Position numbers and translations under genes: made by a program. Of a stretch of DNA of 64,000 bases, positions 40,514 through 43,240 are shown in pieces; position 1 is the first letter of the stretch; each line of letters opens with the position of its first letter. The DNA is from a bacterium (GTDB taxonomy: Bacteria; Patescibacteriota; Minisyncoccia; Phycocordibacterales; UBA9973), in NCBI GenBank assembly GCA_037143195.1, contig JBAWZD010000001.1, forward strand, positions 272,892 through 336,891. The letters run 5' to 3'. A model generated the notes under the pieces. The model ran no database searches and had not been told where the DNA came from. It saw only the letters and a list, made by a program, of their open reading frames with translations.

Positions 40514-43240
40514 ATGCACAACGACAATAACATCCCCGAAAAACTCCTCAAACCTTACAGCGCCAAAGACACCGAATCTCGTATTTATGAAGCATGGCTC
40601 GACAGCGGATTCTTCAATCCCGATATCTGTGTTGAAAAGGGCGTCACCAAAGCCGACGCAGAGCCATTTTCAATGGTTTTGCCCCCACCGAACGTCACCG
40701 GGACGCTCCATACAGGACACGCGCTCATGCTCGTCATCGAAGACATCATGACTCGCTACGCTCGCATGCAAGGCAAGCGCACCCTTTGGCTCCCTGGTAC
40801 CGACCACGCCGCAATTGCCACACAGTCCAAAGTTGAAAAAATTCTTGAAAAAGAAGAAGGCAAACGCAAACAAGATCTCGGTCGCGAAGAATTCCTCGCA
40901 CGCGTCAACAAATTCGCGCAAGAATCTCACGACACGATCGTTGGTCAAGCAAAACGCATGGGTGCATCACTCGACTGGAGTCGTGAAGCATTCACGCTCG
41001 ACGCAACACGCAATCTCGCCGTTCGCACCGCATTCTCCCGCATGTACAAAGACGGGCTCATTTATCGTGGCCACCGTATCGTAAACTGGGACCCAAAAGG
41101 TCAGACAGTTATTTCAGATGATGAACTTGTATACGAGGAGCGCAAATCAAAACTCTACACCTTCAAGTATTCAAAAGACTTCCCTATTTCAATTTCAACA
41201 ACCCGACCCGAAACAAAAGTTGGCGATACGGCGGTTGCAGTTGATCCTACCGACGAGCGATACAAGCAATATGTCGGCAAAGAATACGATGCAGTATTTT
41301 GTGGCGTACCTATTCATATCAAAATAGTTGCAGACGAAAGTGTTGAAAAAGATTTCGGTACAGGAGCGCTTGGTGTTACTCCAGCGCACAGCCAAATTGA
41401 CGCGGAAATTGCTACGCGGCACAATCTTCCGACCATTCAAGTCATCAATGAATATGCAAAAATGATGATTGGAGGAGAAAATCTTCTTGGGAAAAAAGTA
41501 ACTGAAGCTCGGGAAACAATAGTGCAGTGGATTCGCGATGAAGGTCTGATGGAAAAGGAAGAAGATGTGACGCAAAATGTGTCGACCGCAGAACGAACTG
41601 GGGCAATCATCGAACCACTTCCAAAATTGCAATGGTTCATTAACGTAAACAAGCCGATTGCAGATCGAGGCAATAAAACCCTCAAGGAATTGATGCTTGC
41701 TCCAATCCGTGAAAAACAAATCGAAATTCTTCCCGACCGTTTCGAAAACGTGTACTACAACTGGGTCAACAATCTTCGCGATTGGTGTATTTCTCGTCAA
41801 ATCTGGTACGGACACCGCATTCCTGTATGGTACGACAAAGACGGTGCAATCCATTTGCCGAAGGAACGCCGTGTATTGCTCGCACGTCACGGTGAAAGCG
41901 AGGCAAACTCGCTTCGCTTGTTCGCCGGTGGCAAAAGTCAATCTCCACTCACCGATACCGGTCGCGCTCAAGCAAAAGAACTTGGGCAAAAACTGAAATC
42001 AGAAAATGTAACCAAAATTATTTCGTCAAATCTTCCTCGCGCTCGCGAGACAGCGGAAATCATTGCGCGCGAAATTGGCCTCGACCCACAATCAATCGAA
42101 GAATGGGCTGACTACCGTGAATATGAAGTTGGAGACCTCGAAAATACCCCCTGGCCAGAAAAAGGAATTCCATTCCGCACTGCAATAGAATCACAAAAAG
42201 GAGAAAATCTCGCGCAGATTGAACAGCGCGTTATTTCCGTATTCAAAAAACTCGAATCAGTTGAGACTGAGGGCACACTGCTCATGGTCGGACACAACGG
42301 ATTCAACTGTTGTATGAAGGCACATATTGAAGGCGTACAAAAAGAACGTTTCGTAGAATTCGCCGAACTGTGCACAATGGAAAATGCATCGACTCATGAA
42401 TTCATGCTCATGCACAATCCGAGCGGTGAAGGTCTCACTCAAGACGAAGACACACTCGATACATGGTTCTCCTCTGGCCTATGGACATTTTCCACACTCG
42501 GCTGGCCACAAAAGACACACGATCTCAAGATGTTCCATCCGACGTCTGTACTTGAGACTGGCCACGATATTATTTTCTTCTGGGTTGCTCGTATGATTTT
42601 GATGAGTACATACCTCCTCGGAGAAATTCCGTTCAAAACAGTCTACTTCCACGGGCTTGTTCGTGACGAAAAAGGCCGTAAGATGTCGAAGTCGCTCGGC
42701 AATATCGTTGACCCGATTACGCTCATCGACAAATATGGCACTGATGCACTTCGCATGGCGATGATCGTCGGTGTAGGTCCTGGCTCTGACAGCAATCTTG
42801 GAGAAGAAAAAATCAAAGCATATTCAAAATTCGCAAACAAGCTTTGGAACATCGCCCGTTTCGTTATGGAAAATACTTCCAAGCTCGACACGACCACGAC
42901 ACACACACTCGACACCGAAGATCAAGCAACGATTGATGAAATCAATGCTCTCCTCAAGGAAATCACAAAAGAAATGAACGAGTACAAATTCTATCTCGTT
43001 GCCGAAAAACTCTATCACTACACATGGCATACATTTGCCGACGTTGTAATCGAACGAAGTAAAAATAAAATCGCAAACGGAACAGGTTCAGAGTCAGCAC
43101 AACAAATGCTCGTCACTGCACTTCCCCTTTTGCTCCGCGCGCTTCACCCATTCATGCCGTACATTACTGAAGAACTTTGGAATACAGTGTATAATGAAAA
43201 GAATCTTCTGCTTGTAGAAGAGTGGCCATGCAAAATCTAA
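40514..43240 (+). CDS. valS: Valyl-tRNA synthetase carrying an inserted histidine-phosphatase (PGAM-like) domain
   Basis: HIGH motif (LHTGHAL), CP1 editing motifs ([27 protein letters not shown]), [14 protein letters not shown], KMSKS; between WYDKDG and [12 protein letters not shown] lies a ~195-aa block with RHGESEAN...[10 protein letters not shown]...[14 protein letters not shown]...VGHNGF (His-phosphatase superfamily motifs). Confidence 0.9.
   Translation: [908 protein letters not shown]

Follow-up and report, generated by a model that had tools for sequence, protein, structure and literature searches.

Class Ia aminoacyl-tRNA synthetases are among the most studied of enzymes, and the insertions that we know of in this class (the CP1 editing domain, zinc knuckles and the leucine-specific domain) all have a part in the fidelity of aminoacylation or in the handling of tRNA. 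Here we describe a valyl-tRNA synthetase (ValRS) gene, valS, from a member of the Patescibacteria (contig JBAWZD010000001.1), whose product carries a domain of a different kind. The gene lies in a window of 64,000 nucleotides, by which we mean the whole stretch of DNA analyzed. We consider it likely that it encodes the housekeeping ValRS of this organism, that a complete, catalytically competent branch-1 histidine phosphatase of about 180 aa, compact and PhoE/CobC/PspA-like, has been placed into this enzyme at the tip of CP3, that the resulting protein is bifunctional, and that the inserted domain behaves as a cassette in evolution.

The closest positional counterpart of this insertion is the CP3 element itself. 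In isoleucyl-tRNA synthetase (IleRS), the CP3 subdomain forms the link between CP2 and the second Rossmann half, is variable in topology among species, and binds zinc in Thermus (PMC7191050). As with the CP3 or zinc knuckle of the class Ia enzymes, including T. thermophilus ValRS (PDB 1GAX) and IleRS, the insert is located between the GHRIP strand that follows WCISRQ and the DTWFSS helix. The first strand of the Thermus CP3 hairpin is also retained, with the sequence AIHLPKER aligned by HMMER to AVNVPRPE of the zinc knuckle. Unlike known CP3 knuckles and hairpins, which comprise about 15–60 residues, the element described here bears a 180-residue enzyme domain at its tip, and in contrast to the Thermus knuckle, the CP3 of the 908-residue protein lacks zinc-binding cysteines.

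A precedent for an additional enzyme domain within a class Ia synthetase has been curated by NCBI, namely IleRS proteins in which a GNAT domain is embedded (NCBIfam NF040702, 'isoleucine--tRNA ligase, N-acetyltransferase domain-containing'). Those relatives of the Gracilibacteria/Peregrinibacteria-type IleRS P0170 that carry GNAT often carry a His_Phos domain as well. The NF040702 proteins differ from the present one in synthetase, inserted fold and chemistry alike. Considered in isolation, the inserted domain shares its fold and its Arg/His/Asn/Arg/Glu/His residue set with PhoE (1H2E/1EBB), CobC (6E4B, 6NRU), PspA (4IJ5), GpgP Rv2419c (4PZ9) and TIGAR, all of which, in contrast, are free-standing enzymes with known small-molecule substrates, and with which it exhibits 20–27% identity. 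A His_Phos domain is joined to a nucleic-acid enzyme in the Rv2228c family (bifunctional RNase H/CobC-type acid phosphatase, NF005567), a model that ranks among the better NCBIfam matches of the insert, at 57–61 bits. That fusion is terminal, however, its partner is different, and the score falls far below the cut-off of 326. Phosphoesterases are also tied to enzymes of tRNA 3′-end metabolism and RNA repair, as exemplified by the HD domain of the E. coli CCA-adding enzyme and by the T4 and bacterial Pnkp proteins. The present protein would follow the same logic, in which a phosphatase is tethered where a clean 2′,3′-OH acceptor end is needed, only if the tRNA-end hypothesis weighed below is correct, and the phosphatases of those enzymes are of the HD, HAD or calcineurin type rather than His_Phos.

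The first-pass annotation of this DNA had supposed that the architecture is undescribed. In the full-text literature searched, a scope that leaves out most subscription journals, we found no account of a His-phosphatase domain within either ValRS or IleRS, an absence that is not proof. The architecture is nevertheless widespread among the ValRS and IleRS proteins of Patescibacteria, and it is present in public databases under automatic Pfam labels. Such entries are named, for example, 'Valine-tRNA ligase [Candidatus Nomurabacteria bacterium GW2011_GWB1_37_5]' or, at JGI, 'isoleucyl-tRNA synthetase/phosphohistidine phosphatase SixA/...GNAT'. A scan of NCBIfam revealed no curated model for His_Phos-containing ValRS or IleRS.

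The 908-residue protein is predicted to be the housekeeping ValRS

The open reading frame (Table 1) proceeds without interruption or frameshift through both synthetase segments and the insert, and the whole protein exceeds the curated cut-offs of the NCBIfam valS equivalog NF004349 (889.1 bits versus 704) and of TIGR00422 (830.1 bits versus 612.1). The Pfam match to tRNA-synt_1 (E=6e-131) is divided in two, its first stretch covering residues 24–461, and the His_Phos_1 match falls between the halves. When aligned to the Thermus enzyme, the N-terminal segment corresponds to residues 5–432 of 1GAX and the C-terminal segment to residues 446–706, with the insert occupying the place of residues 433–445 or thereabouts. 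The HIGH-type, Thr-rich editing and KMSKS motifs are intact on either side of the insertion. An editing-site block, GTG...TPAH..D, is present at residues 282–296, as expected of a CP1 editing domain, and the CP1 region additionally matches the isolated editing domain 1WKA. The pocket blocks are likewise in place (WCISRQ at residues 424–429 and DTWFSS at residues 649–654), as are the longer ValRS blocks that contain them, at residues 424–444 and 643–654.

The protein ends with an anticodon-binding domain (Pfam Anticodon_1, residues 803–905, E=1.8e-25), and no Pfam match to Val_tRNA-synt_C, which would indicate a C-terminal coiled-coil arm, was obtained. This tRNA-binding arm is typical of bacterial ValRS, though not universal, and the insert-less relatives are equally short, at about 720–730 aa. 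A full-length AlphaFold2 (AF2) model computed from a 128-sequence alignment has a pLDDT of 90 and a pTM of 0.85, and the best match of the ValRS body among PDB folds is 1GAX.

The genes surrounding valS are arranged in the order MurB, HTH-MurA, TsaD, a small open reading frame, ValRS, PrsW and Hsp20. This order is shared by the window, by three insert-bearing relatives (P0001, P0002 and P0003) and by the closest insert-less relative (P0010). Because the same syntenic slot is occupied by valS with and without the insert, the insert-bearing gene is considered an orthologue of ordinary valS. No second ValRS or His_Phos gene is present within the 64-kb window. By these indications, the 908-residue protein appears to be the housekeeping valyl-tRNA synthetase of the organism. 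The orthologous locus, together with a ratio of nonsynonymous to synonymous substitution rates (dN/dS) of 0.015 for the synthetase core, implies that it should aminoacylate tRNA-Val. A tRNA-Val(GAC) gene is found in the same window (15461..15534, + strand), adjoining a tRNA-Ser(CGA) gene; its 3′ CCA is not encoded, and the letters CAA come after the gene.

We also considered that the unusual architecture might be an artefact, created by a chimeric assembly, by a frameshifted pseudogene, or by two adjacent genes misread as one. This explanation, to which we assign practically no probability, is refuted. The frame is continuous, an identical 908-residue protein is encoded on an independent Logan assembly (L001), and homologues with 97%, 85% and 81% identity and the same neighbours were recovered from other samples. 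Moreover, the G+C content exhibits no break across the insert, and the full-length AF2 model is confident. Among the 120 best ValRS homologues, 32 carry both PF00133 and PF00300 (57–97% identity, 906–929 aa), and the source names of these insert-bearing proteins include Candidatus Nomurabacteria, Wolfebacteria and Paceibacterota. The DNA of the window is accordingly assigned to a patescibacterium of the Parcubacteria/Paceibacteria type.

The inserted domain has the fold and active-site residues of a histidine phosphatase

The first-pass annotation had placed a His-phosphatase domain at 41852–42440 (residues 447–642), and alignment moves these boundaries slightly, to about residues 445–637. These columns are empty in 88 insert-less relatives, the closest of which have only about 15 residues at this point; in Thermus ValRS the zinc knuckle comprises about 27 residues. 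The match to Pfam His_Phos_1 (PF00300) is far beyond chance (Table 1), reaching an E value of 1.1e-34 for the excised segment, with overall scores of 115–120 bits against a gathering cut-off of 21.7. In the full-length AF2 model the insert forms a compact alpha/beta domain that extends from the strand at residues 450–458 to that at residues 627–634, with pLDDT values of 88–98. When modeled as an excised segment it is predicted to fold autonomously (pLDDT 94.1, pTM 0.90). The first phosphatase strand (RRVLLARHG) and the last (THEFMLM) run on directly from the two strands of the CP3 hairpin. Foldseek comparison of the insert yielded TM values of 0.75–0.80 to PspA (4IJ5/4IJ6), 6S2Q, GpgP (4PZ9), TIGAR, CobC and PhoE, with E values down to 6e-14 and mycobacterial hydrolases among the matches.

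The hallmark motifs RHGESEAN and VGHNGF reside where the first-pass annotation had recorded them, and the further phosphatase blocks that it quoted are present at residues 478–487 and 504–517. Careful alignment revealed no loss of the catalytic His or Arg. To the contrary, each of the 33 insert-bearing ValRS proteins has R458, H459, G460, N465, R509, E536 and H594 unchanged, and S505, T513 and N624 are conserved to the same extent. The stretch between Glu536 and Gly563, which we take as the cap, is short and poorly conserved. Mean pairwise identity among the 33 proteins is 40% for the insert versus 66% for the core. In a comparison of the window with its 97% identical relative P0001, which was chosen since synonymous sites are saturated against P0003, dN/dS comes to 0.055 in the insert, as compared with 0.015 in the core (dS about 0.8–0.87). 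Strong purifying selection acts on both parts, and it is relaxed about 3.6-fold in the insert relative to the core. Taken together, the alignments and the structure model argue that the insert is an autonomous and, as predicted, catalytically competent His_Phos domain.

In two relatives (P0073 and P0061), this point of CP3 holds inserted segments of some 80 residues that are unrelated to the phosphatase, corresponding to residues 441–640 of the protein in the window, and one of these contains Cys pairs that resemble a zinc knuckle. Because unrelated sequences have been inserted there, the tip of CP3 appears to be a structurally permissive site.

Table 1. Features of the valS gene, with positions in the 64-kb window
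Feature	Position	Strand	Remarks
ValRS with embedded phosphatase domain, whole gene	40514..43240	+	908 aa + stop; continuous open reading frame
N-terminal ValRS segment: first Rossmann half, CP1 editing domain, CP2, closing strand	40514..41845	+	aa 1-444
HIGH-type signature HTGH, aa 66-69	40709..40720	+	aligned to HMGH in Thermus ValRS
Editing-domain Thr-rich motif TTRPET, aa 229-234	41198..41215	+	aligned to 1GAX
Insertion at CP3 hairpin tip: linker, His_Phos_1 domain, linker	41846..42424	+	aa 445-637 (about)
Pfam His_Phos_1 (PF00300) match, aa 454-617	41873..42364	+	E=3.3e-33, 115 bits
RHGESEAN, aa 458-465: Arg458, putative nucleophile His459, Gly460, Asn465	41885..41908	+	aligns with RHGE of PhoE 1H2E/1EBB
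Arg509, second phosphate-pocket arginine	42038..42040	+	aligns with conserved Arg of PhoE
Glu536, putative proton donor	42119..42121	+	aligns with conserved Glu in PhoE 'rE..lGdwEg' block
His594 (VGHNGF, aa 592-597), second catalytic histidine	42293..42295	+	aligns with PhoE 'vtHg' motif
C-terminal ValRS segment: DTWFSS pocket helix, KMSKS, stem-contact fold, anticodon-binding domain	42425..43237	+	aa 638-908
KMSKS signature, aa 723-727	42680-42694	+	motif position

A compact subfamily within branch 1

The highest score of the insert against a named NCBIfam family was obtained with TIGR03162 (CobC, alpha-ribazole phosphatase), at 81.7–87.3 bits versus a cut-off of 162.9. Scores against the phosphoglycerate mutase models are 66–70 bits for dPGM_arch (versus 225), 60–65 for GpmB (versus 261), 34.6 for TIGR01258 (versus 81.7) and 18–42 for the GpmA-type models (versus 305–421), and SixA (TIGR00249) yields 25.8 bits versus 74.5. 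Membership in the dPGM, CobC, SixA, PspA and GpmB families was rejected on this basis, as all curated cut-offs are missed. The description of the domain as phosphoglycerate-mutase-like, offered by the first-pass annotation, should therefore be restricted to the small phosphatase wing of branch 1, given the wide margin by which every dPGM equivalog is missed. The insert would accordingly represent a distinct compact subfamily in the phosphatase wing of branch 1 (PhoE/CobC/PspA/GpgP-like), as judged from these profile scores, and not a phosphoglycerate mutase.

An intein was also considered as the source of an in-frame insertion and was rejected, since no Hint or intein family is found in the Pfam scan and the insert is predicted to fold as a His_Phos domain; the residues that come after the C-terminal junction (N-P-S/T/K...) include no conserved nucleophile. 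Among the PHROGs, the sole family matched by the insert is the phage family phrog_12933 (E=7.5e-19, function unknown), from which it appears that phages, too, carry compact His_Phos proteins of this kind.

Probable exchange of phosphatase inserts between valS backbones

In a tree of ValRS cores, insert-bearing proteins occur in at least two groups. One of these groups branches from within the insert-less proteins, and a subclade without the insert is situated among insert-bearing proteins. The insert and core trees disagree, with a Spearman correlation of distances of 0.25, and the nearest neighbour by insert differs from that by core for 23 of 33 sequences. Some pairs of proteins combine nearly identical cores with divergent inserts: P0050 and P0034 share 92% identity in the core and 37% in the insert, and the corresponding values for P0042 and P0034 are 88% and 44%, as compared with 63% and 52% for P0050 and P0057. 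Compared with P0002, the ValRS encoded in the window is 76% identical over its N-terminal part, 93% identical within the insert and 96% identical over its C-terminal part, so that valS itself has the appearance of a recombination mosaic.

The ValRS positions that co-vary with the presence of the insert are confined to the junction (K441 to D, G442 to K, W641 to L), and the same D...L junction signature recurs in distant long-form enzymes. This distribution suggests a single type of junction, which either was present ancestrally and has been lost repeatedly, or has been disseminated by recombination. Together with its junction residues, the insert appears to behave as a cassette that recombination moves from one valS backbone to another.

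The same phosphatase subfamily recurs in ValRS and IleRS

A profile built from 23 inserts was searched against 1.84 billion representative proteins and returned 221 matches below 1e-30, of which the best 150 (50%-identity representatives) were sorted by architecture. These comprise 15 ValRS proteins, 11 IleRS proteins and one synthetase fragment, together with stand-alone proteins having one (57), two (61) or three (5) copies of the domain, and no fusion partner other than ValRS or IleRS is found among them. Every embedded copy is internal to the catalytic half of the synthetase and never terminal. At least four sites are used (upstream of WCISRQ, at CP3, between DxWF and KMSKS, and after KMSKS), by one to four copies. 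In ValRS, the domain occupies CP3, a position about 200 residues upstream of WCISRQ, or both, and is present in one, two (P0154, P0156) or four (P0153) copies. P0155 and P0244 likewise belong to the ValRS variants that have two to four copies and make use of the upstream site. The CP3 site is also where the domain resides, with an identical junction signature, in long-form ValRS proteins that possess a C-terminal coiled coil (L013, P0161, P0162). Type-2 IleRS proteins, which have a DUF5915 C-terminus, carry it at the homologous CP3 site, often as a tandem pair, and also between DCWFES and KMSKS and after KMSKS. In one unclassified bacterium (DOLZORAL124_38_8), both ValRS (L013) and IleRS (P0315) contain the domain. 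These observations indicate that the same phosphatase subfamily is specifically and repeatedly tied to the catalytic halves of ValRS and IleRS.

PF00300 is common among IleRS proteins of the Gracilibacteria/Peregrinibacteria type, being carried by 107 of the 120 best relatives of P0170, and those relatives with a source name derive from Gracilibacteria, Peregrinibacteria, Peribacteria or Verrucomicrobia. Of the same 120 proteins, 16 also carry GNAT, five an AAA_33/AAA_18 P-loop kinase and five DUF559. The best PDB match of the IleRS P-loop kinase is the RNA-repair enzyme Pnkp1 (4XRP, E=7e-4), which we regard as a lead and not as evidence. One of these IleRS proteins (P0371) has a HAD-fold domain (Pfam HAD_2/Put_Phosphatase) between DCWFES and KMSKS, exactly at the site where others have His_Phos (P0372, P0311) or GNAT (P0322). 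Several IleRS proteins of 1400–1860 aa (P0311, P0322, P0371, P0372, P0388) appear as hot spots for in-frame insertion of enzyme domains, and further sites in IleRS hold AAA_33/zeta-toxin-like kinases and DUF559/REase-like domains.

The RHGNREH constellation is kept in most embedded copies. Stand-alone relatives of about 178 aa are as close to the insert (35–51% identity) as are the other embedded copies. A word-index search with the insert alone returned solely stand-alone phosphatases, at 31–51% identity, and missed the embedded ones. Scanning of contigs with the pattern [LF][AV]RHG[EQ][SC]ExN, which proved too generic, yielded at least 80 loci, mostly unrelated stand-alone His_Phos genes, with ValRS flanks only at L002 and L013 among the matches listed. 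On one JGI contig, a stand-alone tandem His_Phos gene (P0164) starts four bases before the end of a gene of the methionyl-tRNA formyltransferase type (Formyl_trans_N/C), an overlap that suggests co-transcription in this single case.

Neighbouring genes in the window

The gene neighbourhoods of valS and of the stand-alone relatives offered no functional clue. No Pfam family matches an open reading frame of 139 aa located directly 5′ of valS (40010..40429, + strand); the independent assembly L001 contains it too, and relatives have a shorter open reading frame or none at this position. The MurA gene upstream (37028..38545, + strand) encodes an enzyme with the EPSP_synthase fold of the UDP-GlcNAc enolpyruvyl transferase type that has an N-terminal XRE/HTH_3 DNA-binding domain, and this 505-aa HTH-MurA fusion is conserved and syntenic in relatives. 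Downstream on the opposite strand are a 1065-aa beta-helix and LCAT/alpha-beta-hydrolase protein (46411..49608), syntenic in relatives, and a PIF1-family helicase (49813..51564). A 1389-aa protein encoded at 22280..26449 (+ strand) has as its sole Pfam match a C-terminal Por_Secre_tail, a type IX secretion sorting domain that is unexpected in a genome of the Patescibacteria type.

Discussion

The architecture of this protein is most readily interpreted as that of a putative synthetase-phosphatase, and bifunctionality, as proposed by the first-pass annotation, is the best reading of its sequence. According to this interpretation, the synthetase would charge tRNA-Val as usual, while the domain set into the CP3 hairpin at its tip, within the second Rossmann half, would hydrolyze a phosphomonoester through a phospho-His459 intermediate. 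The survey of relatives, which had been foreseen as a check on this proposal, established that 32 homologues share the architecture. It is presumably phosphatase chemistry, and not a particular fold or interface, that has been retained by selection. Proximity to the catalytic half of the synthetase also seems to matter, because simple terminal fusions are never seen. As to the substrate, the repeated placement of a phosphatase inside the catalytic bodies of just ValRS and IleRS would favour one that is handled at the catalytic or acceptor end, such as the 2′/3′-phosphorylated 3′ end of a tRNA or a nucleotide, over an unrelated metabolite. This proposal concerning the substrate is the one that we favour, but it is tentative, and we judge it to be doubtful. 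The roles that the first-pass annotation had suggested for the domain, in tRNA end healing or regulation or as an inert insert, were put forward there as speculation and are still speculative.

Several observations weigh against this interpretation as a whole or against RNA as the substrate. The closest solved structures are all phosphatases of small molecules, and we are aware of no His_Phos enzyme with RNA ends as its substrate. With a mean net charge of −3.8, the same as that of stand-alone relatives, the insert is not basic and gives no signal of an RNA-binding surface. The CP3 tip also tolerates insertions unrelated to phosphatases (P0073, P0061), and no core position of ValRS away from the junction was found to co-vary with the insert, because of which there is no sign of a co-evolved docking surface. 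The putative Glu proton donor has been lost from P0174, P0244 and one copy each of P0154 and P0155, and hydrolysis may therefore not be the selected property everywhere. Finally, neither the insert nor the whole protein matched a PADLOC defence model at E≤0.01.

Many of these same observations would be expected if the insert were an ordinary metabolic enzyme, acting for example on a sugar phosphate, phosphoserine or ribazole phosphate, that has come to reside in a permissive loop of an essential and constitutively expressed gene. Such an enzyme would work independently of the synthetase, and the fusion would only secure its expression and retention in a reduced genome. The nearest structures being metabolite phosphatases, the best NCBIfam matches being of the CobC, dPGM_arch and GpmB types, the similarity to stand-alone 178-aa proteins being as close as that to other embedded copies, the acceptance of unrelated sequences at CP3, the lack of distal co-variation with the ValRS core and the non-basic charge all accord with this explanation, which we regard as possible, if somewhat unlikely. 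It leaves unexplained, however, why ValRS and IleRS are the sole fusion partners among the best 150 representatives, why the fusions are all internal to the catalytic half, with four or more sites in use and as many as four copies, and why the same IleRS site is taken by a HAD-fold domain or GNAT; moreover, every cut-off for a metabolic equivalog is missed. A different possibility is that the domain serves without turnover, as a phosphate- or ligand-sensing regulator or as a dimerization scaffold, with its catalytic-looking residues kept for binding. Some embedded copies of other lineages, which are without the Glu donor yet have the Arg/His phosphate pocket, would be in keeping with such a role. 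A paired-domain unit would likewise be compatible with the slight excess of tandem (61) over single-domain (57) stand-alone proteins and with the two side-by-side copies often found in IleRS. Nevertheless, the full catalytic set, including Glu536, is invariant in 33 of 33 proteins at an insert identity of about 40%, and the HAD-fold domain, a non-homologous one, that takes its place at one IleRS site points to phosphatase chemistry, such that a non-catalytic module seems to us quite improbable.

The insert might alternatively be a selfish in-frame cassette that is mobile, is spread by recombination, and is tolerated in essential genes without benefit to the host, in the manner of an intein that never splices. 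The disagreement between insert and core phylogenies (92% core versus 37% insert identity for P0050/P0034, and different neighbours for 23 of 33 sequences), the junction residues that travel with the insert, the multiplicity of sites and copies, and the occurrence of DUF559/REase-like endonuclease domains and a Y1 transposase match in some IleRS relatives are all compatible with an element of this kind. We nonetheless hold this to be highly improbable, as the valS gene has no endonuclease and no Hint or intein match in Pfam, the dN/dS of 0.055 and the invariant catalytic residues argue for selection on enzymatic function, and synteny and vertical retention extend across homologues that are 57–97% identical. 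A bifunctional ValRS with an exchangeable phosphatase domain remains the interpretation that we prefer.

A broader extension of this interpretation is that the ValRS and IleRS proteins of Patescibacteria are platforms for interchangeable, recombination-shuffled cassettes (His_Phos, HAD, GNAT and PNK-like kinase) that act on the acceptor ends of their own tRNAs or on adenylate-like ligands. In one version, the platform would provide built-in healing of tRNA 3′ ends, and in another, it would provide detoxification, directed against toxins that modify tRNA ends or inhibitors that mimic aminoacyl-adenylates. The turnover of cassettes on nearly identical ValRS backbones would then be caused by an arms race. 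We regard this extension as speculative and distinctly unlikely; if true, it would represent a previously unrecognized layer of translational self-defence or quality control.

Patescibacteria have reduced genomes, in which there is little space for domains that could be dispensed with. It is unusual for the Rossmann body of a class Ia synthetase to house a further, unrelated catalytic centre, as predicted here, that is under strong purifying selection. More striking is that the domain recurs in both synthetases, where it uses several sites and reaches four copies, and that it is exchanged among backbones. The protein lends itself to testing, since it is a single polypeptide whose active site comprises six residues and for which insert-less orthologues provide natural controls, and it could serve to ask whether synthetases carry side activities in tRNA-end repair, detoxification or metabolism. 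CP3 would in addition represent a tolerant site for the engineering of domain insertions into ValRS. For the biology of these organisms, the findings suggest that an unrecognized activity is coupled to the charging of tRNAs with valine and isoleucine in Patescibacteria.

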